A DNA stretch of 63,662 nucleotides. It comes from a virus. Taxonomy: Duplodnaviria; Caudoviricetes. The position numbers and the translations under genes are program-made. Location: the IMG/VR virus record IMGVR_UViG_3300032799_000186, positions 1-63,662 of that record; one strand, given 5' to 3'. Positions 2 through 61,725 of this stretch are shown here, piece by piece; position 1 is the first letter of the stretch, and every line of letters starts with the position of its first letter. The notes beneath the pieces were generated by a model, which worked only from the letters and a program-made list of their open reading frames with translations, was not told where the DNA came from and did no database searches.

Positions 2-3000
2 CTCCGAGATCGGAATGTCTGGAATCAGTACCTGGCTCTCCAGAAGAAATTCAAGGCCCGGTTCGATGGGGAGCGCAAGACGTGGTACATCCCCAAAAAC
101 GAGATGCCCTTTTTTGATTTCGATAAGTATCGGTCGGAAATGGAGGCCATTGGTCTGGAGGTTGAGGATCTTCCAGAAAAGCTGATGCGGGTCGCAGATC
201 CCAAGGGTCCATCCGACTCCCCCGGAGAATCCCATGTTCAAACCCACCCGATGACGGTTGAGCAGGCCATCAACGGGATCAAGACTCGCCGGCTCGATAG
301 CACGGTGGTGCTGACCCGTCGGCCGGACGGGGTGTTCGCTTTTTATACCCCCTACACCGACAAGCCGAAGTTTGAAAAAATCCGGGAATTGTTCAGCAAC
401 AAGACTGGGCAGCTCACGGGGATCTCCAAGTTCAACGAATCAGAGCACTCTCGGGACACCCATGAAATAGATTTGGCCGAGGAAGCTCTGGACAAATTGA
501 AGGCCATGTTTCCCGAGTGGGATTTCATCGTCGAGGGGCTTCGGGAAGGCCGTATCGAGCGGGATCAGGAGATTGCCGAGTCCCAGCTTCCCATTCCAGA
601 AGTTGCTGCGAAGATCAACCCGAAGTTCAAGTTGCTCCCTTACCAGAACGAAGGGGTTCGTTTCATCGACAAGGGGGAGGGGAACGCCATCATTGGGGAT
701 GAGATGGGTCTGGGTAAGACTCTCCAGGCCTTGGCTTGGGGGGCTATGCGGGGAAAGAAGATCCTGGTAGTTTGCCCGAAGGTGGTACGCCGAAACTGGC
801 TCCACGAAGCTACCAAGTTTTTTCCGGACTACTTCAAGGGCCACGAGTTGATGTCCAAGGATCTGCGGGCGGGCAAAATCCCTGACCTGGCCAACGTCAC
901 CATCGCCACCATAAACTATGAGGCGCTGGACAAGTTCAAAGACGTGATCGAAAAGGCTGGGTTCGATACCCTTGTGATCGATGAAAGCCACCGTGTAAAA
1001 AATCCCAAAGCTAAGCAGACCCAGGCCGTGCTCAAATTGGCCGAAGGGATGAAGCACCACATCCTACTTTCTGGAACGGCCATCAAGAACAAAAAGGAAG
1101 AGCTGTTCACCCAGTTGGCCATCGTGGCTCCGAATCAGTTCTCTCTGGCGAACCTTCGGTTCGGAACCATTGGTGGAGTTTGGCAGGGCATGCGGAAGGT
1201 GTACCTGGCCCGGCAGAAGAACAAGGTGCTGAAGGATCTGCCCGAAAAGTCCACTACCCAGGTGAGGGTCGATGTGCCGAACGCTCCCGACCTCACGGGC
1301 ATGTCCAGCATCGGGGACGTGTCCAAGATTCGGGGGCAAGTTGCTCTGGCCAAGGTGCCGGCCACCGCAGAGATGGTCAACGAGATTTTGGCATCTTCCG
1401 ATTCCAAGATCCTGGTGTTCACGGAGTCGGTGGCAGCGGCCAAGAGTTTGGCGGAGAAGTTTGGGGACAAGGCCATTCTCCATGGGGGCTGGGTGAGGGA
1501 TGAGGCCCGGGAAATATCCGTAGAAGAGTGGCAGCACAAGGATGAGCAGGGTAATTTCACGAGCCCCAAGCGGGTGTTCGTTACCACCCGGCCCTCTATG
1601 GCCGTGGGGGCGACCCTGACGGCAGCCGACAAGGTGGTGTTCAACGATCTGCCTTGGACGGCAGCGGACGTGCGCCAGGCCGAAGATAGGGCTCACCGAA
1701 TTGGCCAGAAGAAAAACGTCAACGTCTACTGGATTCAGGCGGATGGGAACGCCTTCGATGAGTCGGTGGCCACCATCTTGTTCCGGAAATACGAGCTGGG
1801 GCAGAAGGTCAACCAGGGCAAGCAACTCACCCCACAGGAGCGGGAGTGGATGGAAGCTGACATGACCGATGCGGAGGTCCTGGCTCACATCCGGGGGGCG
1901 TCAGCCGGCCCCCAGGCAATCGAGTCCACCTCCCCCCCGGTTACCCCCTTGACCAAGGCAACCCCCTTGAAGAAGTCTATGACCATGGCTGAGCGGGAAG
2001 ATCGGAAACAGGTAGCTCGGGAGCAGGAAGAGAAGGGTGACTTGCGGGTGGCGGCCACCTTGCCGTTGCTGGCCCACGCCGGAGACAACCCCAAGGAGCT
2101 GGAGAAGCGGGTGCGCGGCCAGCTCCACAAGTTGCGGGTCCGGAACGATTGGCGGACGGAACTTCTGGAATCGATCATGGGCGACCTGGCGGCGTTCAGG
2201 TACGCTCAGGACTCAGGCGAGATGAATGACCTGCCCATGTACCTGCACGAGCACCTGGTCACCGGTGGGGATCGGGCGGAAAAGTCTCTGGGGTCGATGT
2301 GGTCAGATCCGGAGTTCTCGGAGAGCGTTCCAGAAATGCCCTTCGATGAGACTGATGCCCTCTTGAAGTCCGAAGGCTGGATCCCCCTGGACGAAGAACT
2401 GGGGGACATTCTCTGGAAGTCCGAGCGCCCCCACAAGTACATCCGGCGGGTGCCCTACACCGACAACTTGGGGGTGCATAAGTATCGGTATTATTACAGG
2501 GAAAGCGCATCGGCCCGGGGTGCCCGTGCCGGCGAAGAGGTTACCCTGGGAGAGCACACGGCGCACATCAAGCACGTGGACGAAAGCGGTGCCGTGACCA
2601 TGGAGATCGGGGGAGAGGAAAAAACGGTCAACCACAACGAGTGGCACCAGATGATGGCCCACCACTACGGCGAGGGCTACTACCAGCACGTTGAGCACCG
2701 AGCCATTCAAGCCGTCAACGCGGTCCTTCGGAACGTCCCAGGGGACCTTCTGGAAGAGTTGAAGGGCGACGACTCGGCTCGGATGAACGTGCTGAAAACC
2801 CGGGTGCCAGAGGTCTACGCCAAACTCCAGGCGGCCTTCCAGCGGGTAGGGGTGGATGCCTTCCAGGCCAAGCAGATCATCGGGCACACCATGGAGCGCC
2901 GGGGCTGGGAAGCCGAGGCGCGGGCGGCGGTCATCGGGGCGGTGCTCTCCCCAGAAGGCGCCACGATAGCCAAGAACCACAGGCAGATTGTCGCAGGCGC

Positions 3001-6000
3001 TGAGAACCTGGCCGGCGGGATGAAGGTGGAAGCCAAGCACGTGGCGGCGGCCATCGACCTGCGGCGCCCCAGGTTTGAGGGGGACAACTTTGGCCTGAAG
3101 GTGACGGACATCGCCAAAAAGGCCGAGACCGAGCTGACCAAGCTCCAGCATCTTTTGCACGCGGCCAAGACCGAGGGTGGGACCCACGAGGCCCTGATGG
3201 CGCAGGCCCTGGCGTTTACCTCCACGACTTTGACCCAGCTCAACATGCTGGCGACGGCTTACCCGGGCATGCGGGACAAGCTGCTCGACCCGATGCGCCG
3301 GACGATGATGGAAGTGCCATCCATGGCTCCCAGGTCGGAGCCTACGGCCGAGGGGTCGGTGGCGACCTTGTTCGTGGCCGGTGAAGGTGGGAAGCCCCGG
3401 GCGCTGAAGGCGCGGTATCGGTTGATGGAAGCCAAGGATGTGATTCCCTCCCACGACCCAGAGTCTTTCCAGCCCAACGAGAAGTACCCAACGGGGGTTC
3501 AGGAGCGGGCCTATCACCGGGACAAGGATGAGCAGCAAAAGGTGATTCGGAACGCTACCCGGATGAACGCGGCTTTCCTGATCAACACCAACCCGGACGC
3601 CGTGAACGGCCCGCCCATTGTGACCTCGGACGGGGTGGTCTTGGGTGGTAACAGCCGCACCATGTCGATGCAAAGGGCGTTCAAGACCCAGCCCGACCAG
3701 GCCAAGACCCTGAAGGACTACTTGCGGGATCATGCCTCCGAAGTGGGGCTGACGGCCTACGACGTGGACGCCATGGAGAGCCCGATCTTGGTTCGGATGG
3801 TGGACCTGGAGGACAAGACTCCGAAGGCTTTGCGGACCATGGTCCGGCAGATGAATGAGAACTTTACCCAGGCTTTGGACCCCCGGACTTACCAGGTGGC
3901 GCTCGGGCGCCGGCTGGATACCGAGGCCCTGAATGCCTTGTCAAGCAACATGGTCGAGGATGAGAGCTTGAACGATTTCTTGGCTACCGGGCGGTCCAAG
4001 GTTTTCGTGGATCACCTGTCCAGGGTGGGGGTCATCGACGAGCGGAACAGTAACCAGTACATCAAAAAGGGCACCCGGCAGTTGAACGAAGATGGCAAGG
4101 TTCTGGTGTCCAGAATCTTGGTGGGCAACGTGGTGGACGATGCGGACGTGCTGTCCGACACCCCGCCGAAGTTGTTGACCAGCTTGGCCGGTTGTGTGCC
4201 GTACATGCTCCAGGCCAAGTCCTCTGGACCGGAGTTTGACCTGTCCAACGACCTCCAGACGGCTCTCCATGCCTACAATTATGCGAGGGATATGGCGGAC
4301 GCGGGGAAGGGTCCAGTCCTGGACGCCAACATGCCCGACTGGAGTTTCAATCAGCTATTCGCCCAGCAAAACGTGTTCGGTGAGATTCACCCGGTCACCA
4401 AGAGCGAGCGGGCGATGATCTTGCTGGAGTCCATGATCCGGAAGTCTGGCCCCAGGCAGATGACCCGGATCTTCCGGGAGTACACTAAGGCGGCGTCGTT
4501 GAATCGAACGGATCAGATGTCTCTGGCTGGGCCGGCATTGACCCCCGCGCAGGTGCTGACGTTCTCCATCGAGGCGGCCGGGAAGCGGGACAAGGCCGAG
4601 GCTGAAGCTAAGGCCCAGGCCAAGGCAAAGGCTAAAGCCGGAACAGAGCAGGAAGGATTGTTCAAGGCCCAGCCACAGGCCGGGCCGTTTATCGGACCCA
4701 AGGGTGGGAAGTACGCGGATCCCGAGTTGACCATTTCTTGGCGAGAGCGCACCGGGCGCCAGCCGGCAGCTCAGAAACCGATCCCGACACCTCGGGCACC
4801 GGCGGGTTCTCAGCCTCCAGCCAAGCAACCGATAACGGATGCGCCGGCGGAGGTTCACCAGCAGTACCAGCGGGAGGAAGCGAAAACTCGGGGGGGCCAG
4901 CAAGCGACCGAGAAGCCAAAGACCAAGCGGAACTGGGTAGATCACAAGCCGGGTTTGCCCAAGCAGACCATCGACAAGTACCGGATGGATGAGCCCGATG
5001 GGACGCATTCCTACGTGATGTCTCGGAAGCCGATTCACGACAAGATCCTAGAAGCGTTCATGGGTGGGAAACAACCGGTTCCCAAGGATCGGAAAAAAAC
5101 TGCTTTCGTGATGATGGGTGGACCGGCCAGCGGCAAAACTACTTTGGCAAAACTAATCGCCGGGAAGAAGTTTGGGAAGTTCATAAACGTCAACCCGGAC
5201 GATGTTCGGGAGATGCTGCCTGAATACCAGGAAGCCATTGACTTCAAGGACGATAGTGGCAAGCAGGTTTCGGCTAAGGACGCATCTGCCATGACCCACG
5301 AAGAGGCGTCCGACATCGCAGGTGAAGTTTACAACCGGGCCATTGATGGGAATTTCAATCTTGTGTTTGACGGTACAGGCAAGAACGTGGACAAGCATCG
5401 TGCTCGGGTGGCGTCTTTGAAGGATCATGGCTACCACGTAGTTTTGCTGATGCCTCACCTGGATCTGGAAACGGCCCTGGTGCGGGCTGGAGATCGAGCG
5501 GAGCACAGGGGGCGCACAGTACCTGAGCCTATGATGCGGGAAGCCTACCCCAAGATGCCTGGAAATTTTGAATCGGTAGCCCGAACGGCCGATGAGTTCC
5601 ACCTCTATCACAGTGGAGGCCCTGTTACCAAGCCCCCACAGATTGTCTGGAGCGGTGGAGAGGGCAAGAAGGATAAGGTTCACCACCCAGAGCTATTCCA
5701 GCAATTCCAGGAAGAGGCCAAGCGGTCTCGGGTACTCCAGGGTCGGAAGGAAAACCAAGTGGATCTGGGGCCACCGAAGGGTCCTGTGTCCAGGCATGAG
5801 GCTGGCCTGTCCTACAAGAACCTGAAAAAATCTGGGCCGGTCAGGAGCAAGCTGCCTCCCTTCATGTCCGGCGATGACATTTTGGCGAGATTGCAAGAAA
5901 CCAGCGTGGCCGATGCTGAGGACGATGAGGTGGATCTGAAGGGGACCAAGAAGGCCATGTTCGACCGGGATGTCGGGGCCGACACCCCCATGGGGGATGA

Positions 6001-7006
6001 TTTTGACCCAGACAACCGGCGGCTGAAGTACGCCAAGGAAAAGCCCACCATGCCGCCGAAGCAACCCCTGTCAAAGGCGGCCGGGCAAGGCCCCTTTATT
6101 GGCCCCAAGGGCGGGAAGTGGGCCAATCCAGAAATGACCATTCCTTGGGAGGAAGGCACAGGCCAGGGGCGGCCTCCGGCGGCCCAGGAGCAACCCTCTG
6201 CACCTAGACCCCCGGCTCAGCCCCAGCCACAGGCAGCAGGTAACCTGGCCCCCCAGACCCCGGCCCAGGCCCAGGCGCACCAGGCTACGGGGGATTTGGT
6301 TCCTTCTGCCCAAGGCCAGGCCCAGCAAGAAAAGCCAGCTCAGCCCCAGTCGGGGCACTCCGAGCCCAGTGAGGCGGAGATGCTCCAGCGCCTGGACGGT
6401 CAACTTCCAGGGGGCAAGACGACCCAGGAGCACTTCCAGATTGCCAAGGATTTTCTGGCTCAGCACAGGGCGGCGTTCGGGGCAACGATGAAAGCCATGC
6501 AGAACCTGGCCGGTGAGACGGGGGAGGTGTCGGCGCGGGTCAAAGACTTAGGCAGCGCCCTGAACAAGCTCGTAAGAAAACCCAAGTACGGAACGGCGGA
6601 CAAGCTCCAGGATGGGATGGGCGCTAGAATCCAGCACCAAACCGTCTCTCAGGTATGGGAGACGGTGAAGAAGGCCAAGTCCCAGTTCAAAGTGGTGACT
6701 GAGGATAACTACCTCGACACGCCCCTGGGGGACTATCGAAGCTACCACCTGATTCTGGAAGGCCCCACCGGGCTCCAGTTCGAGTTGCAGGTCCGTACCC
6801 ACAACCAGAACATCTTCGGGGACTGGGCGCACAAGGGCTACAAGCCCGAGACTGCGGAGCAGGAGAAGTACAAAGATCACCCAGACGTGAAGCGGTACTC
6901 CAAAGAGATGTCCGAGTATTTCTGGGAGGTAGACAACGAGCAAACACCCAAGTTCACCCCCGAATGCCCTCCGGTGGTTCAACAGGTCTTTGGGTGCATG
7001 GCGTAG
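2..7006 (+). CDS. Giant polyvalent protein, 5'-truncated: SNF2-family helicase/ATPase, DdrB-like ParB domain, zeta-toxin-like P-loop kinase, RelA/SpoT-type synthetase
   Basis: The frame is open from nt 2 (LRDRNVW...RFDGERKTWYIP), so the start is probably upstream. SNF2 motifs LLPYQ, GDEMGLGKT, DESH, LSGTAIKN, QAEDRAHRIGQ (~630-1740). DdrB-ParB-like ARYRLMEA..IPSHDP..QERAY..GPPIV..GGNSRT (~3400-3870). Zeta-like MGGPASGKT..INVNPDD..FDGTG (~5100-5610). Synthetase motifs RVK, QDGMGARI, YRSYH, ELQVRT (~6530-6840). Confidence 0.88.
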   Translation, partial: LRDRNVWNQYLALQKKFKARFDGERKTWYIPKNEMPFFDFDKYRSEMEAIGLEVEDLPEKLMRVADPKGPSDSPGESHVQTHPMTVEQAINGIKTRRLDSTVVLTRRPDGVFAFYTPYTDKPKFEKIRELFSNKTGQLTGISKFNESEHSRDTHEIDLAEEALDKLKAMFPEWDFIVEGLREGRIERDQEIAESQLPIPEVAAKINPKFKLLPYQNEGVRFIDKGEGNAIIGDEMGLGKTLQALAWGAMRGKKILVVCPKVVRRNWLHEATKFFPDYFKGHELMSKDLRAGKIPDLANVTIATINYEALDKFKDVIEKAGFDTLVIDESHRVKNPKAKQTQAVLKLAEGMKHHILLSGTAIKNKKEELFTQLAIVAPNQFSLANLRFGTIGGVWQGMRKVYLARQKNKVLKDLPEKSTTQVRVDVPNAPDLTGMSSIGDVSKIRGQVALAKVPATAEMVNEILASSDSKILVFTESVAAAKSLAEKFGDKAILHGGWVRDEAREISVEEWQHKDEQGNFTSPKRVFVTTRPSMAVGATLTAADKVVFNDLPWTAADVRQAEDRAHRIGQKKNVNVYWIQADGNAFDESVATILFRKYELGQKVNQGKQLTPQEREWMEADMTDAEVLAHIRGASAGPQAIESTSPPVTPLTKATPLKKSMTMAEREDRKQVAREQEEKGDLRVAATLPLLAHAGDNPKELEKRVRGQLHKLRVRNDWRTELLESIMGDLAAFRYAQDSGEMNDLPMYLHEHLVTGGDRAEKSLGSMWSDPEFSESVPEMPFDETDALLKSEGWIPLDEELGDILWKSERPHKYIRRVPYTDNLGVHKYRYYYRESASARGARAGEEVTLGEHTAHIKHVDESGAVTMEIGGEEKTVNHNEWHQMMAHHYGEGYYQHVEHRAIQAVNAVLRNVPGDLLEELKGDDSARMNVLKTRVPEVYAKLQAAFQRVGVDAFQAKQIIGHTMERRGWEAEARAAVIGAVLSPEGATIAKNHRQIVAGAENLAGGMKVEAKHVAAAIDLRRPRFEGDNFGLKVTDIAKKAETELTKLQHLLHAAKTEGGTHEALMAQALAFTSTTLTQLNMLATAYPGMRDKLLDPMRRTMMEVPSMAPRSEPTAEGSVATLFVAGEGGKPRALKARYRLMEAKDVIPSHDPESFQPNEKYPTGVQERAYHRDKDEQQKVIRNATRMNAAFLINTNPDAVNGPPIVTSDGVVLGGNSRTMSMQRAFKTQPDQAKTLKDYLRDHASEVGLTAYDVDAMESPILVRMVDLEDKTPKALRTMVRQMNENFTQALDPRTYQVALGRRLDTEALNALSSNMVEDESLNDFLATGRSKVFVDHLSRVGVIDERNSNQYIKKGTRQLNEDGKVLVSRILVGNVVDDADVLSDTPPKLLTSLAGCVPYMLQAKSSGPEFDLSNDLQTALHAYNYARDMADAGKGPVLDANMPDWSFNQLFAQQNVFGEIHPVTKSERAMILLESMIRKSGPRQMTRIFREYTKAASLNRTDQMSLAGPALTPAQVLTFSIEAAGKRDKAEAEAKAQAKAKAKAGTEQEGLFKAQPQAGPFIGPKGGKYADPELTISWRERTGRQPAAQKPIPTPRAPAGSQPPAKQPITDAPAEVHQQYQREEAKTRGGQQATEKPKTKRNWVDHKPGLPKQTIDKYRMDEPDGTHSYVMSRKPIHDKILEAFMGGKQPVPKDRKKTAFVMMGGPASGKTTLAKLIAGKKFGKFINVNPDDVREMLPEYQEAIDFKDDSGKQVSAKDASAMTHEEASDIAGEVYNRAIDGNFNLVFDGTGKNVDKHRARVASLKDHGYHVVLLMPHLDLETALVRAGDRAEHRGRTVPEPMMREAYPKMPGNFESVARTADEFHLYHSGGPVTKPPQIVWSGGEGKKDKVHHPELFQQFQEEAKRSRVLQGRKENQVDLGPPKGPVSRHEAGLSYKNLKKSGPVRSKLPPFMSGDDILARLQETSVADAEDDEVDLKGTKKAMFDRDVGADTPMGDDFDPDNRRLKYAKEKPTMPPKQPLSKAAGQGPFIGPKGGKWANPEMTIPWEEGTGQGRPPAAQEQPSAPRPPAQPQPQAAGNLAPQTPAQAQAHQATGDLVPSAQGQAQQEKPAQPQSGHSEPSEAEMLQRLDGQLPGGKTTQEHFQIAKDFLAQHRAAFGATMKAMQNLAGETGEVSARVKDLGSALNKLVRKPKYGTADKLQDGMGARIQHQTVSQVWETVKKAKSQFKVVTEDNYLDTPLGDYRSYHLILEGPTGLQFELQVRTHNQNIFGDWAHKGYKPETAEQEKYKDHPDVKRYSKEMSEYFWEVDNEQTPKFTPECPPVVQQVFGCMA
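4682..4741 (+). repeat. 20-aa tag copy 1 (GPFIGPKGGKYADPELTISW)
   Basis: Read directly. Preceded by LFKA (4658-4669) and followed by a P/Q/A-rich linker and the zeta-like domain. Confidence 0.95.
6089..6148 (+). repeat. 20-aa tag copy 2 (GPFIGPKGGKWANPEMTIPW)
   Basis: Preceded by LSKA (6068-6079) and followed by a P/Q/A-rich linker and the RelA/SpoT domain. Confidence 0.95.
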
Positions 7007-7015: not shown

Positions 7016-7450
7016 ATGGCCGAAGGAAACATGCTGGACAAGATTCTGGAGGCCAAGAAACGGGTCACTCCGGAGCAGGGGTTCAACGTGGTGGGGATCG
7101 ACACCTATGAGATGCCCGGAGAAGAGCCCTTTGTCATTGGGCACTACGATACCGTGGAAGAAGCCAATGCGATGGTGACGGCCTACAAACAGAGCTACCC
7201 TGACACGCCGGTTTACGTGTACGGCGTTCAGGCGGCTGAGCAGGAAGTCCAGAAAAGTGTTCTCCAGAAATTCCATGACTTCACAGTCCCTATCGTTCAG
7301 AGGGATACTCAGACTTATGAGCGGATCCAGAGAGTGCTCATCGCTCGGCACGGGTACGAAGAGGCCGACTTCGAAAAGGACGGAGAATTGTACGGCTGGA
7401 GTGCCAACGAATTGTTGGACCTAATCCTAGAGGACCTGCGGGGCAAGTAG
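7016..7450 (+). CDS. Hypothetical protein with an internal VQKS site
   Basis: AGGAG Shine-Dalgarno. Fills the gap between the two giant genes, and its stop abuts the next ATG. Confidence 0.75.
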   Translation: MAEGNMLDKILEAKKRVTPEQGFNVVGIDTYEMPGEEPFVIGHYDTVEEANAMVTAYKQSYPDTPVYVYGVQAAEQEVQKSVLQKFHDFTVPIVQRDTQTYERIQRVLIARHGYEEADFEKDGELYGWSANELLDLILEDLRGK

Positions 7451-10400
7451 ATGCTGTTGACACCGGAACAACTTCAGGAGATCCGCCGGATCATCCAGGA
7501 CTACCACAGTGCCTTTGTGGTCAACGTGGTCGGTCCAACGGCGGTGGCTCCAGAAATTCTGGCACGACTGAAGGCTAAGGGCCTGGTGGACATCCGGATC
7601 CAGTCCATTCAGGACGCCTACATCTACGGTCAGTTACTGGCCCACCTGGACAATCCGGCCATTGCCAGGATGACCTACACCCAGTTTCGGGACTTCATCA
7701 AGCGAAACCCCATCCCGATGACCTTGGTGGAGAAGCAAGCGGTCAAGATGGCCGAGGCCAGCGCCGGGCAGTATTGCGCCGGCTTGGGTAACCGGGTGGA
7801 CATGGCCACGGGGGCCACCCTGATCGAAGCCGATGCAGCCCTCCGAAATCAGCTCAAAGACGTGATCCGGACGGAAACGGCCGAGGCCATTTCTCGTCGG
7901 GAATCAGTCCAGAAATTGGCCAGCAACCTAGGGCACGCTACGGGGGACTGGTCCAGAGATTGGCGGCGGATCGCCAACACGGAAGTCCAGCAGGCCATGC
8001 AGACCGGCCTAGCTGACCGGTACCGGGAGGACTACGGCACGAGCGTTCGGGTGGCGAAAGTTCCGATGCCCGACGCTTGCGAGCACTGTAAACGCTTGTT
8101 CTTGGGGCCTGATGGGAAACCCAGGATCTGGAGGTTGGCTGACCTGCAAGCCTTCGGGACGAACGTCGGGCGCAAGACCCGGGACTGGGTGCCCACCGTG
8201 GGCACGGTTCACCCGCACTGCCAGTGCCAGCTCATCCGGGTTCCCAAGGGATTCGGGTTCGATGCTTTGGGGCGCATGGTGCCCGGCGGGAAACTGGGGG
8301 TCGAGGCAGACGCGGACGATTTCATGCGGTCCCTGCAACTGGAGGATGAGTTCCACAAGTCTGTCAGCTCCAATGATCTGGTGAATTTCCAGGGCATCAC
8401 GGTTCACGTCGAGAATCGAGCCGGCGAGCTTCGGCACTGGGAGAGTGCCACGGGCGAGCGCGGTATCACCCACATGCTGTGCGCCTATGGTGAAGTGGTG
8501 GGGACCAACGGGGCGGACGGGGACGGGCTTGACGTGTATCTGGGACCGGACCCCAAGGCCAACACCGTGTTCGTGGTTCACCAGCAGAATCCAGAGACTG
8601 GGGTGTACGACGAGGAGAAGGCCATGCTCGGCTTTCCCTCAGAAGAGTTCGCTCTCCAGGTCTACCGGGCGCACTTCAACAAGCCTGGGTTCGACGTGGC
8701 GGTTTCTCCGATGGGGGTCGAGCAGTTCAAGGTTTGGGCTGACGCTACCATCGCGGCGAAGGGCGAGGGCAAGAGCGAGACCATCCGGTTGGTTATTCCC
8801 CTGGAGAAGGCCCAGGCCGGTCCCTTCATCGGGCCGAGAGGTGGCAAGTGGGCTGACCCCGAGATGACCATTCACTGGGAGGATCGTCCGGAGAAGCCAG
8901 AGGCCCAGGCCCAGGAAGAACCGAGCGCGGCCCCCAGCGCAAAGCAACAGATCCCCGAGCACCTGGCCAAGCGGTTGGCTCGCCGGCAACCGGGGCATGG
9001 TGAGAAGATTGCTCTGAACAAAGAGGAGCTGGGCTTGGTTTTGGCCACGGGGAAGTATGCCCTGGTGAGCGCGGGGAAGAACCCCAACAGCCCGGAAGAT
9101 GCCAAGCTGACCCCAGCGGATTTTGCCAAGCGAACGGAACAGCTCCGGCAGCAGTTGGTGACCGACGGGTTCGCTTACTCTGACGTGGTGGGGCACTACG
9201 GGGAGATGGAAAACAGTTTCCTGGTCATGATCCACGACGCTGACCGAGAGCATGTGAGGAAGCTGGGGGAACTGTTCAACCAGGACACGATCCTCTACTC
9301 TGCGGGTGGGAAACACGAGTACCACTTCACCACCGGGCAAAAGAAAGGGCAGTACGTCAAGGGTGAGGGTCACCAGACTTTTGAGGTTGCCCCATCGGAC
9401 TATTACACGGAGTTCACTCACCCTGATGGTTCGATCACCAAGTTTTTGTTGAACCTGGACTTCGATCATGTGTTCCAGTCCGAGGTTGCGAAAGAGATAG
9501 CTCCAGAGGTTCCAGTTCAACCGGTGCCCCCCAAATCCGTTGGACGGGAGTCTCGGGATAGGCCAGCACCCGAGTGGGGTCCGGGCCGGGGGGTATGGCA
9601 CGCTGAGCGGTATTCCTTCGGGGAGAGCCCGGACGCCAAGCCGCTGGACACGATTTCAGTTGCTGACCTCCCCAAGGATTGGCTGGATCAAAACGCCTAC
9701 GATATGAGGGATGCGGTTCAGGCCAAATTTGGGAAGCTGGAAGCGCCCCCGGGGTACCAGATCATTTATCGGACAGGATCTGGCCCCAAGGGTCTGGCCA
9801 ACCGCAACGCTGGGAACTTGGAAGCGGTGGTGGATTTTGTCCGGCACTATGAGGATCGGGGCATCGAGTACGGCAACAAGATCACGGCCTACGCGGTTCG
9901 GATGCCAGAAGAGTTCGCGGACTACGAAAAGCGCAAGGGGGCTTACCTGAAAGAGGGCATGGACAAGGCCATGCCCCAGGCTGGTCCCTACATCGGTCCC
10001 CGAGGGGGGAAGTGGGCCAACCCGGAGTTGACCATTTCCTGGAAGGAGCACAAGGCACGCCAGCACGCAACAGCGGCATTGGCAGGAGGGTCATTCAACC
10101 AGGGTCACTGGCAACCACGTCCTGCCTCTGAATGGGAGGACGAAGAAGCCAAGCTCCGGGCCAAACTGACCGAGGCTCGAACGTCCGGCCTTCCTCGTTG
10201 GATGGAATTGTCCACCCCCTACTACCGCCCGGATTGGCCTCTTTCGGGGCCGGTGCAACCTGAGATGGACTTGAAGGTGGCCGAAGTAGCCATTGGTGCT
10301 GAGACCCTTGAGCATGCGGTGGCGTTCGATGGACAGGGCCGTCAACTGTTCCGGGCGACTTCAGACCAACGCGGCTACGTTCGTTTCAATGAAAAGCAGA

Positions 10401-11398: not shown

Positions 11399-11856
11399 AG
11401 CAACTCACCTTTGTCATTCCCATGGAAGCTCCAGAAATTGAGCACCCCCAGGGATCGATGATCCAGGCTACCCCGGGCAGCGTGGACGCGGCCAAGATCG
11501 CCAAGATGGAACTTCCCCGGGGGGTGCCCCGGAGCCGGTTGACCGTGTGGCTGGTGGACGGAAAGCTGATTCGGGATTCTCTGGACACCGACTTCATCGG
11601 CGGAGGGCATTTCTTTCGGTACCAGTGGATCCCCGAAGGAGAGATTTGGCTGGAGAATGACACCCCCACCAACGACGTGAAGTTTTTCCTGCTCCACGAA
11701 TTGTGTGAACGGGCCTTGATGGTGGACGGTATGGAGTACGACGAAGCCCATTCCCACGCGGCTGAGAAGGAAGCCCTTTGCCGGAAGAGTCCAGAAACTC
11801 TGGATGAGTCCATTTCCCGGGCCATCGTGAAAAATATCAAGGCGGAGCGGAAATAA
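11395..11856 (+). CDS. Hypothetical protein, possible zincin-like metal-binding domain
   Basis: ATGA overlap with the upstream stop. Motif LLHELCE...YDEAH. Confidence 0.65.
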   Translation: MKQLTFVIPMEAPEIEHPQGSMIQATPGSVDAAKIAKMELPRGVPRSRLTVWLVDGKLIRDSLDTDFIGGGHFFRYQWIPEGEIWLENDTPTNDVKFFLLHELCERALMVDGMEYDEAHSHAAEKEALCRKSPETLDESISRAIVKNIKAERK

Positions 11857-12125: not shown

Positions 12126-12157
12126 AGCCCGTTTGGACTGAGTGCCAGTCCGGTTGG

Positions 12158-12200: not shown

Positions 12201-12210
12201 TGGAGTACAG

Positions 12211-30685: not shown

Positions 30686-30688
30686 CCC

Positions 30689-54070: not shown

Positions 54071-54255
54071 ACAACCCACGGTGATCAGATCAGAGATCAT
54101 TTTGATTTTGATCTAGTAATCTATATGAGCTAAAGCACGGGATCAAAAGTCAAGTGGTTGATATTGCAAGAGAAAATGGAAATTGAGAAATGAGTAGAAA
54201 GGCTAGATAAAAGGTTGATTATACAAAGAAATTTGTACTTGAAAATGTGCTAAAA

Positions 54256-55878
54256 ATGGACATAAATTCCAGAGAAAACAAGGTGGAGATCAGCGGGTTT
54301 GGCCCCTTCGGGGCCAACCCGCAGGGCTTCGCCCCACCTGATTCTACTTACCATCTCGGGACTGGGGAAGATGTAGAGTTCCAGGTAGAGAACGGGTGGA
54401 CCCATATCTTGCACGCCCCTCCCTTCCTGCTGAGTGTGTTCGACCAGGAACTTCGCTACCCAACCCAGGTCGCTTTGGCCATGGAAGCCGGCTTCGTCGC
54501 TCAGGACGGGTGGGACGGCTGGATCCGGTTGCTTCGAAAGCCCACCCAGACCAACCCTTCCCCCAGGGTGCCCACAGGATTGCTTTCCGCTTTGATCAGG
54601 TTGTGCGGAAAGTTTGGGTTTACCTACCGGATCCATGATTCCAGAAACAAGCCCGCCGGAGACGTTCCAGAAATGGTGACGATCCCGCTTCGTGACTACC
54701 AGGAAGCGGCAGTCGAGGCGGCCTTGAAAGCAGGCCGTGGGGTTCTGGACATGCCACCCAGGTCTGGAAAGACCAGGACCATGGCTGAGATTCATCGGCG
54801 CCTGGCGCTTCCCACAGCTTGGCTGGCCCCGACAACCCGGATCGTGACTCAAACGGCCGAGGTGCTGGCCGGGTTTTTCGGGGAGAACTATGCTTTCACC
54901 CTGGTGGGATCGAAAGACTGGAAAGCGGCTTCCAGAAAAAAGATCGTGGTTTGCACAGCGGCGACGGCTGGGAACTTGCCGGCCGATTTCTGGAAAAGCC
55001 GGCAAGTGGTGGTGGTCGATGAATGGCATCACGCGGCAGCCAAGACCTACCGGGAAATACTCGATCATTGCGAGCACGTCTACTATAGGTTTGGGATGAC
55101 CGGTACTTTTTACCGCTCGGGCCTGGATGAACTGGCTATGCACGCTCTGCTCTCGAACGCGGTCTACAAGATCACAAGTCGGGAACTGTTGGCTCGGGGG
55201 TTCTTGATCCCGGTGAAGGTGGTGTTTATCCCGGTCCTCGGACACGTGCGGGGGTGCGGAACTGGATTCCAGACGGGACACGGGAAGGCGGGGATCCACG
55301 AGCACACCTACCGCCAGTCGATGGTGGCCCACGTTGCTCACTACCTCCAGAGCACCGGCCGGCGAGTCCTGGTGCTGGTTGGGACCAAGAAACAGGGCCG
55401 GGATCTGGAGACGGTCATCCGAACCCTGGTGCCCCGGGCGCCGGATGGATGCCAGCGCAAGTCGGTGGAGTTCATCTGTCACGACACCCCCAAGACGATC
55501 CAGGGGGAGATTCTGGAATCGTTCGTGGCTGGTCGGGAGGTGAAGGTGCTCATCGGGACCTCAATCGTGGGTGAGGGAGTGGACTTGCCAACGACCGACA
55601 GTTTGGTGTACGCCAAGGGGGAGAAGGCCGAGGTCACCTTGGTGCAGAACGCTTACCGGGTGGCGACGGCGGCCGAGGGAAAGGATTCTGCAATCATCGT
55701 GGACTTCGCTGACCGACACCACCGGAAACTGTTGCAGCACGCCCTGGAGCGGTTGAGAATCTACCACGAGGAACCAAGTTTTGAGGTGAAGGTGCTTCAA
55801 GATCCGCAGGAATTTCCCCAGTGGCTACAGGCGCAGGGAAAAAAGCTGGACCAAAATCTCTGGAACGGGGTTATCTAG
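54256..55878 (+). CDS. Superfamily 2 DNA helicase (UvsW/Rad25-like)
   Basis: LRDYQ, MPPRSGKT, DEWHH, MTGT, GEGVDLP, IVDFAD. The start position is uncertain. Confidence 0.88.
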   Translation: MDINSRENKVEISGFGPFGANPQGFAPPDSTYHLGTGEDVEFQVENGWTHILHAPPFLLSVFDQELRYPTQVALAMEAGFVAQDGWDGWIRLLRKPTQTNPSPRVPTGLLSALIRLCGKFGFTYRIHDSRNKPAGDVPEMVTIPLRDYQEAAVEAALKAGRGVLDMPPRSGKTRTMAEIHRRLALPTAWLAPTTRIVTQTAEVLAGFFGENYAFTLVGSKDWKAASRKKIVVCTAATAGNLPADFWKSRQVVVVDEWHHAAAKTYREILDHCEHVYYRFGMTGTFYRSGLDELAMHALLSNAVYKITSRELLARGFLIPVKVVFIPVLGHVRGCGTGFQTGHGKAGIHEHTYRQSMVAHVAHYLQSTGRRVLVLVGTKKQGRDLETVIRTLVPRAPDGCQRKSVEFICHDTPKTIQGEILESFVAGREVKVLIGTSIVGEGVDLPTTDSLVYAKGEKAEVTLVQNAYRVATAAEGKDSAIIVDFADRHHRKLLQHALERLRIYHEEPSFEVKVLQDPQEFPQWLQAQGKKLDQNLWNGVI

Positions 55879-56077: not shown

Positions 56078-56087
56078 GGGAGGATCC

Positions 56088-56734: not shown

Positions 56735-57358
56735 ATGCCAATGGCGCAACTGCTGCTCAGGGACTACAGTGACTATTTTCTCCAAACCGCGTACATCAAA
56801 AAGCTGAAAGCCTCCGGTGGGTACATTACCGGGGTCAAGATAACACCAGAGCGGATCCAGGCCATAGAGCGGATGGCGATCTGGTGTCGTGAGCGTCGGC
56901 TGGATCCCAGGCACTGGCTCCAGAGCCTGTTCGAATCCCGCCGATGGATCTTCCCGCCGCAGTGGAACCAGTTGACCTCAGCCAAGCACCTCGCAAAGTA
57001 CCCAACCATCCCCGTGAGCCAACCGTACCAGCAGAAGATGCAGAATGAGCTGTTGGTCGGCCAAACGAGGAGGGGGGCCACGTTCGACGTGAACCGGGAC
57101 CTTTCCCCAGCAACCGAGGCCATCAAGGCCAGGCATCTTTACCACCAGGAGTCTGACCGGTGCCAGGCCGGGATGAAGTCTGAGACCATGGGGTACCACC
57201 CCTTGAGCACTGTTTGCGCCAGGTGCCCCCGGGCGAGAGAGTGCGAGCAGGCGTTGAGGGCGCTGGCGAACTTTGACATTGTGGCCTTGCGCCAGGGGGC
57301 GATCTCTCTGGAGCAGGCAGCGGCGCAGGAGCGCAAACGATTCTATGAACGCCATTGA
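56735..57358 (+). CDS. Hypothetical replication-module protein with C-terminal Cys cluster
   Basis: CARCPRAREC. Directly upstream of and overlapping the helicase. Confidence 0.65.
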   Translation: MPMAQLLLRDYSDYFLQTAYIKKLKASGGYITGVKITPERIQAIERMAIWCRERRLDPRHWLQSLFESRRWIFPPQWNQLTSAKHLAKYPTIPVSQPYQQKMQNELLVGQTRRGATFDVNRDLSPATEAIKARHLYHQESDRCQAGMKSETMGYHPLSTVCARCPRARECEQALRALANFDIVALRQGAISLEQAAAQERKRFYERH

Positions 57359-58781
57359 CCGGCAGCCTGTTGCCAGGCAGCCGGCCAATGTCGAGGCCCA
57401 GCCGAACCTTCCCTTCGGTTCGGACTTCCAGGCTTCGCTGTTGCGGTTGCTGCTAGAGGATTCTGGGTTCGCCCATGCGGTCAGCGAACACCTGAACCCG
57501 TCCTACTTTGAGAGTCCCCCGTTGGCCTGGGCGTGGGCTTTCTGCCAGCGGTATCAATCCCAATACGGCAGCATGCCCACCACCCGGTTGCTGTTCGAGC
57601 AATCCCGGAGCGTGGACCAGCGCATCCGACCCCTTTATACGGCCACCATCGAGGTAGTGGCCGCCGCCAGCCTTCGAGAGGAAAAATGGATCCGTGACCA
57701 GGTGCTGGAGTTCATTCGGAGGAACGTGTTCGTCGCGGCGTTCCGGGACTGCAAGGATCTCTACAACGCCGGCAAGGCCACCGAAGCCTACGATTTGATG
57801 ATGGAGCGGATGGAACGGATCCGGATCACGGTTTTTGAACAGGTGGATCGGGAGTGGGTGTGCGCTGGTTTGCCGGCACGGCAATCGGCTCGGCTGGGGG
57901 TTGACGGGCGGAGCGATACGATCACGACTGGGCTCCGGTCGCTGGACAAGGTTCTGGAGGGTGGGTTGCACCTGGGTGAACTGGGGATCTGGATCGCGGA
58001 GCCCAAGACCGGCAAAACCACGATGCTGGTGAACCATGGGATTGCCGGCGCCCGGCTGGCCTTCAAAAACGTCCTGCATTGCGTGTTCGAGGGGTCCAGG
58101 AAACAGGTCGTGAATCGGTATGACGCGGCTTTCAGCGAAGAACTTTACAGTCGGGTGAAGGCCGGCGAGATGGGGGACAAGAAGTACGAGGTCTTGCTGG
58201 CTGAGTACAAGATGCTGTCTAGCAAGCTGGTGGTCCGAGCCTTCACCGAGCGGTGGGATTATTCGGTGGTCGATGTCCACGAGGAAATTCGCACGCTCAA
58301 GCGGGAGCACGGCTGGGAGCCCCAGCTTGTTGTCGTGGACTACGGGGACCTGCTGCGCGGCCGGGAGAAGCACTACAACAGCGAGACCGAAAAGCAGCGG
58401 GCGGCTTATCGGGATCTGAAGTCCCTGGCTAACAGGGGGTATGCGGTCTGGAGCGCCACCCAGAGCAAGCGGCCGAAGGAAGGGGATGAGAACAAGCCCC
58501 GGTGGCTCAGGAGCCGGGACGTGGCGGACTGCTACGACAAAATTCGGGTGTCGGATTTTGGGGGTAGCATCAACCTGACCCTGGAGGAAAAGAACCTGGG
58601 ACTGGCCCGGTTGCTGTTTGAATACTACCGGGATAACGAGGCTGAGAATAGCGTCGTGGTTCGAGCTGACTTTTCGCGGATGCTGATCAAAGAGGAGTTG
58701 GGGTTGACCAGCCCGGCGGTGCCCGGGATGGAATCGAGTAAACTAGGCCAGCTTCCCAGACAGGCACTGGCCCCAATATGA
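57345..58781 (+). CDS. Replicative DnaB/T4 gp41-like helicase
   Basis: AGGAG upstream of ATG 57345. TGLRSLD..GG..GEL, AEPKTGKTT, VVVDYGDLL, WSATQ. Confidence 0.9.
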   Translation: MNAIDRQPVARQPANVEAQPNLPFGSDFQASLLRLLLEDSGFAHAVSEHLNPSYFESPPLAWAWAFCQRYQSQYGSMPTTRLLFEQSRSVDQRIRPLYTATIEVVAAASLREEKWIRDQVLEFIRRNVFVAAFRDCKDLYNAGKATEAYDLMMERMERIRITVFEQVDREWVCAGLPARQSARLGVDGRSDTITTGLRSLDKVLEGGLHLGELGIWIAEPKTGKTTMLVNHGIAGARLAFKNVLHCVFEGSRKQVVNRYDAAFSEELYSRVKAGEMGDKKYEVLLAEYKMLSSKLVVRAFTERWDYSVVDVHEEIRTLKREHGWEPQLVVVDYGDLLRGREKHYNSETEKQRAAYRDLKSLANRGYAVWSATQSKRPKEGDENKPRWLRSRDVADCYDKIRVSDFGGSINLTLEEKNLGLARLLFEYYRDNEAENSVVVRADFSRMLIKEELGLTSPAVPGMESSKLGQLPRQALAPI

Positions 58782-58978
58782 GGGAGGATGCAATGACCCT
58801 GGTCGAGATCGACGCCGAAATTCGTCGCCTGCAAGCGGAGCGGGATCTGATGCGTGAGGCCATTTGGGCGCGGCAGCAACAAGAGTTCGAACGGGAACGC
58901 CAGGAGCGGATGCAGTTGCGGATCGCGGCGGAGACTGGGGGTCGAAACGAACCGGAACCGGAGGGACTGCGGGTGTGA
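58778..58978 (+). CDS. Small coiled-coil hypothetical protein
   Basis: Overlaps both neighbours by 4 nt. An alternative start at 58793 has a GGAGG SD. Confidence 0.55.
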   Translation: MREDAMTLVEIDAEIRRLQAERDLMREAIWARQQQEFERERQERMQLRIAAETGGRNEPEPEGLRV

Positions 58979-60003
58979 ACCCCCTCATCACCCGAGCCAT
59001 CGAGCTGTTCGACCTGTTGGGCTACGTGATCGATCACGGGGGTGAGGAAGCCCAGGTCAACCAGTGGGCGCTGGTGTGCCCAACTTGTGGAAAAAAGAAA
59101 CTGGTGGTGGATCTCGGGCGGCGGGCTTGGCATTGCTGGGTGTGTGAGCAGTACGGGGCAGCGGATGCCCGCACTGGGAAGCGCCAGGTACTCCAGGGCG
59201 CCGGCGGGCTCATCGACCTGGTGCAATTTCTGGAGGGATGGGATCGAAAACGGGCGGCTGAGTTTGTGCTGGCTCAGACCAATCTCCAGCCCCCAAATCT
59301 GGGGCATATCGACGGGGATCTCCGGGCCAGCGTGGCGAAGGAGCTAGATGGGCTGAGAACATTGCCACAACTTTCTTGCCCAGAATGCACGAAAAAGATT
59401 GACGGCGCTATGCCGTATATGGTACAACGAGGGATAAGCATGGAGGACGTTCGGATGTTCGGTCTGTTTTATTGCGACGGAGGGCGTTACCGGGGAAGGC
59501 TGATCTTCCCGGTGTACGAGGACGGCCGGTTGGTCTACTTCCAGGGCCGGGCGATGTGGGAGTCGAAAGAGCCTGGATTTTTGAAGTCGTTGAACCCGGT
59601 GCGAGAAGAGGGCGCGGGGGTGAGCAGTGAGGTGTTGTTCAACTTGGATCAGGCGCGGTTCGCCGCGAGAGTGGCCATCACCGAAGGCCCCATCGACGCG
59701 GTTCACGTTGGGCCGGATGCGGTTTGTACCTTCGGGAAGAAAATCTCCGCGACCCAGATCGCCAAGATGCTGCGGGCTGGGGTCAAGGCGGTGGATTTGA
59801 TCTGGGATGGCCCGAGTGAGCGGGAGCCCCAGGGCGCCTGGCCGGAGATGTTTGCGGTAGCCCCGACGCTGGCCACGCTGTTCGACACCAGGCTGGTGTT
59901 TGTGCCTCAGAAGGATCCGGGGAGCTGGTCTCGGGCTGAGAACGCTTTTTTCAGGACACAGGGGCGTCCTGTGTCCTCTTTCGCCCAAGTGGCCCGACTC
60001 TAG
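58975..60003 (+). CDS. DNA primase (Zn finger + TOPRIM)
   Basis: CPTC..WHCWVC, RLIFP..YFQGR, LFN, ITEGPIDA, IWD. GTG start overlaps the upstream stop. Confidence 0.88.
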   Translation: MNPLITRAIELFDLLGYVIDHGGEEAQVNQWALVCPTCGKKKLVVDLGRRAWHCWVCEQYGAADARTGKRQVLQGAGGLIDLVQFLEGWDRKRAAEFVLAQTNLQPPNLGHIDGDLRASVAKELDGLRTLPQLSCPECTKKIDGAMPYMVQRGISMEDVRMFGLFYCDGGRYRGRLIFPVYEDGRLVYFQGRAMWESKEPGFLKSLNPVREEGAGVSSEVLFNLDQARFAARVAITEGPIDAVHVGPDAVCTFGKKISATQIAKMLRAGVKAVDLIWDGPSEREPQGAWPEMFAVAPTLATLFDTRLVFVPQKDPGSWSRAENAFFRTQGRPVSSFAQVARL

Positions 60004-60393: not shown

Positions 60394-61680
60394 ATGAATC
60401 GCTTTTCCGGTCACGACAAGCGGGTGACGCTGCACCTGGCGCTGCACAGTGCGGTCGCCAGAACTATTCCGGGACTCATCGAGGCCCTGGGGGCGACGGA
60501 GGCGGCTGGCTGGGACCTGGCGCTTGTCCCCCAGGCGGCGGTCGAGGTGATTTACGCCACTTTCGATGAGGCTTTCGAGAAACTGGTGGTGTCGGAGTTC
60601 GAGGCCGATCCCAGTTACCTCATCGACCTGGGTACTGGGTGCCCGGGAACGTGCCCCCTTTGCGGGCACAACCCCATTCGCTGGGTGTTCCGCGTGGTGA
60701 ACCACCGAGAGGGTGGCAGCGCGGTGGAGTGCGGGTCCGAGTGCATCGTGACTTGGGGAATTTCGGTGAAAGGTGCTGAGACCGCTGAGGCGGCTCGGGC
60801 CATCCTGGAGTCCCAGATTCGCAAGGCGATTCGCCGCCTGCTCATCGAGGGGTGGCACAAAGAGACAGGGTTCAGCGCCGGGTGGTTTGCGGCAACTTTC
60901 GAGTCCCTGGAGCGGATCCGGGCGCATCGGGAGCTGCCCTACAACGTGAGGAATGGCGCCTGGCACAAGCGGCGTGACATGCGGAAACTGGAGCGGTTCT
61001 ACAACAGGACTGGCTGGTTGAACACCGAGATCCGGTGGAATGAGCTGGCCAGAATCGTGAACTTCTGCCGGGCCAACGACACGGAGATCAAGCTGCCTTT
61101 CCTGGCCCCCTTTGTTCCCAAGGCGGCGGCCACCAAGGCGGCCATCGAGGCGGGGACGATCAAGACCGAGGCTCTGGCCCCCAAGGGCAAGCCGGTGGAT
61201 GTCAGACCGGTGGGTACACTGGAGTTGCCGCTGTCTCCGAAGGTCGAGGCGGCGCCGGAGGTCGAGATGGTGCCCGAGATTATCACCCCCATCTATCCCG
61301 AGCCCGAGATGGACGCGGAGGCGGCGGCTCGGGAGGCCGAGCTGGCTTGGGTGCGGGAGCAGGCGGCGAAGGACGAGCCCATCAACGACGGTGCCCCTTA
61401 TGCCCCGGGTGAGGAGGCCAAAGTGGTGGCGGCGTTTGAAGTGACGGACGTGATGAGCATTCTGGGCAAGGCCCTGGTGGACGCGGCGGATGCGGCCTTG
61501 ACCCAGGCGGCGGACCTGGCCGAGTGCAAGCTGGCGAAACTGGAGTCCGAGGCCGATGGCGGGATCACCCTGGATGACAGGGTTCCCGAGTATGCCCCCC
61601 CGCCGTCGGTTCCGAAGTCGGCCCAGTTGGCTCTGGACTTCAGCGCGGTGTGCCGGGAACTGGTTTTTCGTGCTAAGTAA
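60394..61680 (+). CDS. Hypothetical protein with Zn-binding motif and acidic tail
   Basis: GGAGG SD. CPLCGHNPIRW..CGSECI. Confidence 0.7.
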   Translation: MNRFSGHDKRVTLHLALHSAVARTIPGLIEALGATEAAGWDLALVPQAAVEVIYATFDEAFEKLVVSEFEADPSYLIDLGTGCPGTCPLCGHNPIRWVFRVVNHREGGSAVECGSECIVTWGISVKGAETAEAARAILESQIRKAIRRLLIEGWHKETGFSAGWFAATFESLERIRAHRELPYNVRNGAWHKRRDMRKLERFYNRTGWLNTEIRWNELARIVNFCRANDTEIKLPFLAPFVPKAAATKAAIEAGTIKTEALAPKGKPVDVRPVGTLELPLSPKVEAAPEVEMVPEIITPIYPEPEMDAEAAAREAELAWVREQAAKDEPINDGAPYAPGEEAKVVAAFEVTDVMSILGKALVDAADAALTQAADLAECKLAKLESEADGGITLDDRVPEYAPPPSVPKSAQLALDFSAVCRELVFRAK

Positions 61681-61725
61681 CCGTAACAACTGTGAAACAA
61701 ATCTTCCAGAAAGTGCATTTTTTCC

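Follow-up and report, generated by a model that had tools for sequence, protein, structure and literature searches.

The word and its copies in the window

The linear IMG/VR virus record IMGVR_UViG_3300032799_000186, analysed here over its whole length of 63,662 bases (the window; about 59% complete), belongs to a myovirus whose DNA carries an 8-base word, TCCAGAAA, on both strands and at about 40-fold above chance. Its gene set comprises 56 called genes and three added open reading frames (ORFs), all on the + strand, among which a sheath, a protease, a baseplate J protein, a tail-tube initiator and a major head protein (phrog_752, E 5.6e-85) were identified. A ResIII helicase, a DnaB-like helicase and a DnaG-type primase are all encoded in the window. 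Two giant polyvalent proteins, which probably enter the cell as injected cargo against host defences, are encoded at 2-7006 (a 2334-aa ORF with SNF2 helicase, ddrB-ParB, Zeta-toxin and RelA/SpoT domains) and at 7451-11398 (InPase, SAM-lyase and DUF3293 domains), and their domain order varies among relatives. The cumulative GC skew climbs monotonically along the window, with no replication origin signal visible in it.

We counted 47 exact copies of the word in the window, 26 on the + strand and 21 on the - strand (the latter read as TTTCTGGA on the + strand), where base composition predicts 1.1. None of 100 dinucleotide shuffles reached this number (mean 2.22, standard deviation 1.52, largest 7), and the reversed word, used as a control, occurs once. 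TCCAGAAA is the top-ranking 8-mer of the window, and the 7-mer TCCAGAA occurs 81 times versus 5.6 expected. An earlier note on this DNA, made by eye, had claimed at least 46 copies in both orientations, about 26 and 20, lying mostly inside genes. The count bears this out, with a copy in the reported orientation at all 20 of the example positions it gave and with 45 of the 47 copies inside called genes.

The first five letters of the word are sharp, as any substitution there cuts the 47 copies to at most 7, and the three terminal A's are softer, TCCAGAGA and TCCAGAAC being present in 14 and 15 copies. A flanking T is favoured on either side (24/47 at position -1 and 23/47 at +8), and the full TTTCCAGAAA, the near-palindromic extended form of the earlier note, occurs in only 6 copies. 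Sequence information is restricted to positions -1 to +9 of the word, and since it stops by about +9, the word is not part of a longer repeat; an element of the miniature inverted-repeat transposable element (MITE) or repetitive extragenic palindrome (REP) type was rejected because no conservation was seen outside this core.

The copies are given here in map order, with their strand and the amino acids encoded at the site. In the first giant gene, 2-7006, they lie at 172-179 (+, P-E), 1068-1075 (-, S-G), 2329-2336 (+, P-E) and 6127-6134 (+, P-E). The small gene 7016-7450 holds two, at 7248-7255 and 7263-7270 (both +, Q-K), and the second giant gene, 7451-11398, three, at 7549-7556 (+, P-E), 7908-7915 and 10887-10894 (both +, Q-K). 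Two follow in gene 11395-11856, at 11430-11437 and 11790-11797 (both +, P-E), two in ORF 11859-12125, at 12065-12072 (+, P-E) and 12106-12113 (+, Q-K), and four in the protease gene (12142-13083, +), at 12197-12204 (-, S-G), 12446-12453 and 12572-12579 (both +, Q-K) and 13007-13014 (-, S-G). Gene 17664-18233 bears copies at 17920-17927 and 18055-18062 (both -, S-G), gene 26647-26889 at 26728-26735 (+, S-R-N) and 26788-26795 (-, F-L-E), and gene 26886-27323 at 27212-27219 (+, P-E). The copy at 30465-30472 (-) is outside the called genes; the gene-call gap that surrounds it, 30024-30688, is overlapped by an uncalled ORF, 29717-30685, which also overlaps the preceding gene in another frame and holds this copy. 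The adjoining gene 30689-30991 has copies at 30725-30732 (-, F-L-E) and 30963-30970 (+, Q-K).

Further along, gene 34472-35011 contains copies at 34495-34502 and 34636-34643 (both +, P-E), gene 35337-37715 at 35488-35495 (+, Q-K) and 36928-36935 (-, S-G), gene 37728-39248 at 39002-39009 (+, P-E), gene 39245-40312 at 39766-39773 (-, F-W), and gene 40322-42268 at 40707-40714 and 41706-41713 (both -, S-G). The baseplate J gene (42278-43690, +) carries one copy at 43539-43546 (-, S-G), gene 44797-45852 two at 45024-45031 (-, F-W) and 45781-45788 (-, F-L-D), and gene 45856-46485 three at 46340-46347, 46358-46365 and 46403-46410 (all -, S-G). Copies at 50109-50116 (-, F-W) and 50384-50391 (+, Q-K) lie in gene 49750-52377, and four are found in the helicase gene 54247-55878 (+), at 54640-54647 (+, S-R-N), 54666-54673 (+, P-E), 54931-54938 (+, S-R-K) and 54987-54994 (-, F-W). 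The primase gene 58864-60003 itself carries one at 59227-59234 (-, F-L-E), and the last copy, 61705-61712 (+), is intergenic between genes 60394-61680 and 61726-62712.

The earlier note had seen no copies in the scaffold, major capsid protein (MCP), sheath and tube genes or across 18.1-26.7 kb. This is correct for the 8-mer, which is absent from the four genes together (0 versus 3.9 expected, P=0.017) and from the 8,665 bp between 18063 and 26727 (0 versus 6.4 expected), a gap of a length that arises in 5% of random placements. However, the stretch is thinned about 2-fold and not empty, as it has 5 copies of the 7-mer versus 11.0 expected and 10 of the 6-mer versus 20.4.

Selection on the DNA itself

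All six classes of frame and orientation are occupied by the 45 genic copies, which encode P-E in 12 cases, Q-K in 10, S-R-K/N in 3, S-G in 12, F-L-E/D in 4 and F-W in 4. When synonymous codons were shuffled with every protein and the codon usage of each gene kept, the genes held 6.59±1.96 copies (largest 15), and shuffling of the codon order gave 4.10±1.40 (largest 9). Since 0/1000 shuffles reached 47 under either null, the enrichment persists, and it thus withstands the codon-preserving comparison that the earlier note had put forward as its refuting test. The codons that make up the word are rare elsewhere in the same genes, TCT accounting for 11%, GGA for 14%, CCA for 13%, AGA for 5% and AAA for 23% of their synonymous sets. 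Of the places in the window where silent changes suffice to write the 8-mer, 43/99 (43%) are filled, compared with 1/59 for the reversed word, and across six genomes of the phage family described below, 33-52% of the silent opportunities for a genome's own 8-mer are filled, versus 0-7.5% for reversed or foreign words. These observations rule out a peptide or codon artefact, and show that the selection which maintains the word acts directly on the DNA rather than on peptides or codons.

The same analysis accounts for the structural-gene gap. The capsid and tube genes have 0.70 and 0.37 copies per kb versus 1.82, and yet the fraction of opportunities realised in them is ordinary (29% and 20% versus 34%), so that they carry few copies because they offer few opportunities. 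Moreover, in two relatives of the phage, G001 and G003, opportunities for the genome's own word number 221-240 versus 98-206 for control words, which implies that amino-acid changes helped to install the word in less constrained genes.

A drive by mutation or repair, in which mismatch repair like the very short patch (VSP) type or biased gene conversion would turn near-cognates into the word, could explain why silent opportunities are so highly saturated and why the word is installed equally fast in accessory genes; CCAG within the word is a VSP-type context, and TCTAGA is rare (2 copies). We regard such a drive as very improbable. A T-to-C bias at a single position cannot lift an 8-mer 40-fold, the T-variants TCTAGAAA and TTCAGAAA stand at expectation (1 versus 0.8 each) and are not depleted, no C5 methylase was found in a scan that left Vsr outside, and the proteins themselves are shifted toward opportunities. 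We are highly confident that TCCAGAAA is a recognition word held dense by selection, so that some sequence-specific DNA-handling protein would meet a copy about once per kb per strand anywhere on the genome.

Dialects, spacing and carriers of the word

A search with the capsid protein gave 26 viral contigs of related phages, with identities of 38-71%, along with 3 loci in records of bacterial metagenome-assembled genomes (MAGs); the related phages are myoviruses of ~100 kb. The closest cultured capsids, from SPO1-like Herelleviridae, are just ~38% identical, so that no cultured host is at hand, and a megablast of 20 kb against cultured phages gave no match. Three sediment-metagenome runs from 2019 contain at least half of the sampled words in their assembled contigs.

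Whole records of the relatives hold 135 (G001), 148 (G003) and, in eight others, 1-16 copies of TCCAGAAA, and de novo k-mer ranking of these relatives revealed dialects. TCCAGAA(A) is the dialect of the window, G001 and G003. The word of G002 is TCCGGAA (228 copies versus 13 expected), in which TCCGGA forms a perfect 6-bp palindrome, and that of G005 and G007 is CGTCTGGA (equal to TCCAGACG; the TCCAGAC(G) dialect), with 129 and 112 copies versus about 4. G004 has a weaker word, TCCAGC(A/T)(A/T), and the ranking gave no word for G006, G008 and G009. All dialects share an invariant TCC, which is followed by a purine and then a G, and they differ in the 3' tail. On the capsid tree, the TCCAGA core reaches at least five times its expectation in 14/29 related loci with a GC content of 0.44-0.62, the sister words TCCGGA and TCCAGC extend to 0.64-0.65, and word-less lineages are interspersed among the word-bearing loci. 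Judged from these sequences, the word is a family-wide trait with dialects.

Several other repeated words were met in the relatives. The signals ATCCGGAT and GATCCAGA of a low-GC clade were set aside as mostly single-frame peptide effects. G004 (L038-L043) has a second repeat, AGGAGAGCG (25 copies versus 1.4 in an order-3 Markov model), that may be a promoter or ribosome-site element. G006 (L065-L069) has more CGATCGC, GCGATCGC (a HIP1-like palindrome) and A-tract words (CGAAAAA, for example) than base composition predicts, and none of these shows an excess under the order-3 Markov model.

Irrespective of dialect, the five complete genomes with a word have similar 7-mer densities, of one copy per 467, 484, 523, 551 and 559 bp, or ~1 kb per strand; in the window it is one per 785 bp. 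Both orientations are used alike (26:21 in the window, 64:71 in G001 and 78:70 in G003), and runs tests (z of 0.11, -0.48 and -1.71, respectively) gave no orientation domains; those that seem to appear in the 8-mer list are non-significant with the 7-mer. Gaps between neighbours are near exponential, with no preferred pair geometry and no excess of inverted pairs, and coding and non-coding DNA are used about proportionally (intergenic copies 9.6-19.6% versus 7.8-15.2% non-coding DNA). Regular spacing is ruled out by the variation of the gaps, except in G002 (L044-L049), whose dialect alone is spaced more evenly on each strand than expected at random, with largest gaps of 3.3-3.5 kb versus a random median of 4.6-5.2 kb.

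Individual sites turn over fast. DNA alignments of the genomes extend over only about 10 kb (~67% identity), and in codon alignments of orthologues, 7/46 window sites have a word at the homologous position in G001 and 8/47 in G003; in genomes of other dialects, 0-1 homologous positions bear that genome's own word. Even two contigs with 79% nucleotide identity have only 8 TCCAGA sites in common out of 15 and 14, one of the two contigs having a one-letter variant at the non-shared sites. Lineage-unique genes have filled their opportunities as well as core genes (349/1000 versus 459/1331, p=0.86), ruling out that recently acquired genes are word-poor.

On the cellular side, none of 182 genomes sampled from Gemmatimonadota and Myxococcota comes near the phage word density. 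In the 121 Gemmatimonadota genomes the word mostly stands at 1-3 times the reversed control, a statement unchanged when G075 and G115 are left out, and in the 61 Myxococcota genomes at 0.2-3.9 times. The strongest outlier, G124 (476 versus 50 copies, roughly 9-fold, in long same-orientation runs), was rejected as a word-dense host, as its signal is codon-driven, the word ranking 356th in a 400-kb sample and being antisense to Phe-Leu-Asp/Glu codons; the family capsid gene is absent from it. MAG-linked hosts were likewise rejected, since the family members in these MAGs, L062, L063 and L064, lack the sharp word; the L062 word, CGAGCTC, is equally dense in locus and genome and only ~1.4 times its control. 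When viral and metagenome collections were scanned for pairs and triples of the word, most of the matches listed were chance pairs or single-orientation tandem arrays, and none of those listed was a cellular word-dense contig. The loci L198-L277, on unrelated metagenome and giant-virus contigs, hold TCCAGAAA in many tandem arrays of one orientation, the period being a multiple of 3, and these arrays are probably coding repeats.

Two viral sequences outside the family carry the word or a near form of it. L119, a 4.2-kb terminase-portal fragment whose best BLAST E-value against the family is 0.38, has 9 copies versus 0.14 expected, in both orientations and all frames and with a 3' T preference like that of the window. 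In its 25-kb relative G139, CCAGAAA occurs 26 times from end to end versus 0 for the control, as just one of several CCAG-containing words enriched ~20-fold. At least one phage lineage unrelated to the family thus has nearly the same word, in a less specific form. A 9-kb contig of the second lineage, L455, shows a different dense repeat, ATACACAA(AAG), in ~39 copies.

These distributions bear on a word of the Chi type, read by the host, in which a RecBCD/AddAB-like or other host nuclease would be attenuated at the word, the phage would accumulate it for protection and the dialects would reflect hosts. Phages without recombination modules indeed accumulate the Chi of their host to about one per 1.9 kb, as described in PMC12315714, and Chi variants have a common core and a variable end according to PMC8022716. 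CTGG is common to the complement of the family words and GCTGGTGG, nearly the same word appears in the unrelated lineage, and accessory genes are as word-dense as core genes. Nevertheless, we consider this reading rather improbable. The Chi-rich phages treated in the cited part of PMC12315714 are orientation-biased (20 of 23; 32 versus 0), end-clustered and devoid of recombination modules, whereas the family is non-polar and encodes SbcC/Rad50-like and RuvC proteins. Polarity is given as a defining criterion for Chi in PMC8022716; the word is over-represented as Chi would be (47 versus 2.2 and 6.6) and lacks strand polarity. In addition, one TCCAGA core spans phage GC contents of 0.44-0.62, and no sampled genome is word-dense, the best outlier being codon-driven.

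Candidate readers and known systems

The earlier note had taken the word for a genome-wide protein-binding or modification site and had named the packaged ParB-like or SNF2 module, or a host factor, as a possible reader. Selection at the DNA level and the family-wide distribution agree with the general idea, while the suggestions of a modification site and of the packaged module did not stand up. No methyltransferase of the Pfam families PF01555, PF00145 and PF02086 (N6/N4, C5 and Dam-type), the three families scanned, was found in 5/5 genomes, four of them at least 91% complete, although control genomes matched. A modification or restriction target, host- or phage-encoded, such as the site of a Type IIL, Type III or BREX-like single-strand methylase or of a hypermodification, is accordingly quite improbable in our view. 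Like Type IIL and Type III sites, the words are short and in most cases asymmetric, the TCCGGA of G002 is a 6-bp palindrome of the restriction-site type, and the phage may inject anti-restriction functions, for example through its predicted SAM-lyase domain. Against this stand the missing methyltransferases (other methylase families lay outside the scan), the lack of a modification module among the 10 annotated replication genes of G003, and the fact that host restriction sites are normally avoided and not enriched 40-fold. This complete relative encodes a PolA with an intein, SbcC/Rad50-like, RuvC and PHP proteins and a T4-type terminase; its family A DNA polymerase (L031:13893-16709) is split by an intein that contains an HNH endonuclease.

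That the copies are sites bound by the packaged polyvalent protein with its ParB-like and SNF2 segments may be regarded as highly improbable. The idea draws on the domains of the 2334-aa ORF and on the TTTC-containing half-sites read by ParB-family helix-turn-helix (HTH) proteins. However, the ParB-like segment (residues 1134-1267) has no BLAST counterpart in G001 and G003, which use the same word, and has one in G002, which uses another; the SNF2 segment is kept (48-51% identity) in G008 and G009, which have no word; the Pfam domain is of the ParB N-terminal type and not the sequence-reading HTH; and parS-type sites are few, long palindromes, unlike the word. Sites of the parS/ParB or Noc-binding (NBS/Noc) kind were rejected on the same ground, the word being an asymmetric 8-mer in 47 dispersed copies that the ParB-like segment fails to track. 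A reader like HU or TF1 was also dismissed, since an HU/IHF-type protein is encoded in only 1/10 genomes, G007 (C1:51394-51660, E 3.2e-18).

A BLAST-level screen for gene clusters present in at least 5/6 word genomes and absent from all 3 word-less genomes returned none. The accessory gene 7016-7450 was rejected as a determinant because its conserved module also occurs in the word-less G006. The small proteins tested had no Pfam family match, a protein atlas search returned viral look-alikes only, and a text search of the literature for the motif gave primer matches only.

Small, fast-evolving proteins would nevertheless slip through a screen of this kind, which leaves room for a self-marking word read by another phage protein, either a packaging factor such as the small terminase, with a preference for phage over host DNA, or a shield against a phage nuclease that degrades host DNA. 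Each added copy would then give a small benefit, and the word would have to be rare in the host. Such marking fits a word that is dense, non-polar, randomly spaced and independent of position, dialects that drift fast, the lack of a word-dense genome among those sampled, and the fact that the unrelated carrier L119 is a terminase-portal module. We judge it unlikely, since it comes with no candidate protein, its sole presence/absence candidate being the gene shared with G006, and since literature searches turned up no earlier case of phage words dispersed for packaging or self-marking.

Whether the reader is encoded by the phage at all appears to us an even question. The TCCAGA core common to phages of such different GC content and the lack of any accessory gene that tracks the word would, as sequence comparisons go, point to a core reader encoded by the phage, and so do the lineage-unique genes, as word-dense as core genes, and the 0/182 sampled cellular genomes that are word-dense. 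The reader would then be a core protein of the phage DNA machinery with a specificity drifting between lineages.

As a tentative candidate, in which our confidence is rather low, we propose the zinc-ribbon DnaG-type primase of the phage (58864-60003, +; PHROG phrog_47, E 3.1e-35; weak Pfam DNAG_N), which would act together with the DnaB-like replicative helicase (57273-58781, +; phrog_19, E 1.7e-42; Pfam DnaB_C). In the alignment the primase carries an N-terminal CPxCG...WHCWxC zinc ribbon, and a primase with this ribbon lies beside a DnaB-like helicase in 10/10 genomes, which we count in its favour. The template would be the complementary strand, 5'-TTTCTGGA-3', in which the invariant GGA, the complement of the invariant TCC in the word, would supply the recognition and cryptic bases, and the variable tail (AGAAA, AGACG, GGAA or AGC..) the first few primer nucleotides. 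The sharp five letters at the 5' end and the softening tail resemble a recognition triplet followed by primer positions, and primase sites, too, are sharp at the bases recognised and softer at the primer positions that follow. Primase words are known to be short and lineage-specific. One primase of the T7-gp4 type, AtTwinkle, has the template 5'-(G/C)GGA-3' with GA cryptic, as reported in PMC5737085; like these sites and the T7 5'-GTC-3' family, the word is strand-specific and would be read by a zinc ribbon. Copies on both strands would serve lagging-strand priming in a T4-like, recombination-driven replication without fixed fork direction, and the relatives carry a T4-like recombination set of SbcC/Rad50-like, RuvC and PolA proteins that we also count in favour of the primase.

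Several observations weigh against the primase. Over its whole length, the primase of the window (G000) is equally identical to those of same-word and other-word genomes (49, 49, 48 and 50%), its zinc ribbon looks most like the one in G004, a genome with a different word, and the same ribbon is retained in G006, G008 and G009, which have no word. The residues by the second Cys pair do vary by class (WHCWVCE, WHCWHCL and WRCFRCE; only 10 genomes compared), and yet no clear co-variation of the ribbon with the dialect emerges from these 10 genomes. The spacing is random-like, with a coefficient of variation of the gaps of ~1 in 5/6 genomes, and per-strand gaps of 5-8 kb occur. Primase sites characterised in the sources cited here, including PMC5737085, have 3-5 bases and need no genomic enrichment, unlike a word of 7-8 bases enriched 40-fold. 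The match of TCC to GGA could be a coincidence, several trinucleotides being known primase sites. G139, whose 25-kb record is 42% complete, showed no family primase, and a shared host reader would account more simply for the word in L119 and G139; a host-encoded reader is possible.

Dispersed words of other kinds offer partial parallels. Stoperators of Cluster A mycobacteriophages are 13-bp sites for a single phage protein in about 24-36 copies, located between genes and oriented with transcription. The family words appear analogous to them as many dispersed asymmetric sites whose specificities diverge between subclusters, but they are genic and in both orientations. A repressor-stoperator array was therefore rejected, as 45/47 copies are genic and all genes are on the + strand while the copies are 26+/21-, and copy placement does not support a promoter or stoperator geometry. 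HIP1 of cyanobacteria is a palindrome of the cellular genome, linked to methylases; the word seems comparable to it as an 8-mer of sub-kb density that falls in all frames and varies from lineage to lineage, whereas most family dialects are asymmetric and the three methylase families are absent.

The DNA uptake sequences and uptake signal sequences (DUS/USS) of Neisseriaceae and Pasteurellaceae (Frye et al. 2013, PMC3630211) likewise occur about once per kb in both orientations, in genes and in all frames, and form lineage dialects with an invariant core in which density is kept and not position. Unlike these words of competent bacteria, which are recognised by a pilus receptor and often form inverted pairs that act as terminators between genes, the word is carried here by a lytic-type phage genome; no cellular carrier of it was found in the sampled genomes or among the listed matches from the collections, and it shows no excess of inverted pairs or intergenic placement. 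Chi in lambdoid phages, according to the cited part of PMC12315714, is also a non-palindromic 8-mer, ~20- to 40-fold enriched and near one per 1-2 kb; it is, however, the word of the host, orientation-biased and end-clustered, whereas the family word is non-polar and even. The known Chi variants in PMC8022716 are G-rich. Our literature search, supplementary files aside, found no paper on a word common to a phage family and divided into dialects.

None of the proteins or systems known so far accounts for the reading of this word. A pressure that fills a third to half of the silent opportunities and shifts the proteins is among the strongest DNA-level constraints in a phage genome. If the reader is encoded by the host, the word would be a new host-prediction signal, pointing to an undescribed host nuclease or defence. 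If it is encoded by the phage, the word would show viral DNA being marked or serviced by the virus itself in a novel manner, would set up a recombination barrier between dialects and would serve as a simple signature to classify uncultured phages, and the reader would be findable by co-variation. It is plausible, though we hold it with somewhat less than even confidence, that many virus lineages have a genome word of their own, placed within genes through silent substitutions and even changes of amino acids at about one copy per kb, read by their own replication or packaging machinery and drifting into dialects. In that case, the machinery would work preferentially on viral DNA, reader and word would co-evolve, and this family would illustrate it cleanly, its four dialects being built on an invariant TCC. 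Such words would be the phage-side counterpart of uptake sequences and Chi, and would impose a hidden constraint on protein evolution and on recombination between lineages.

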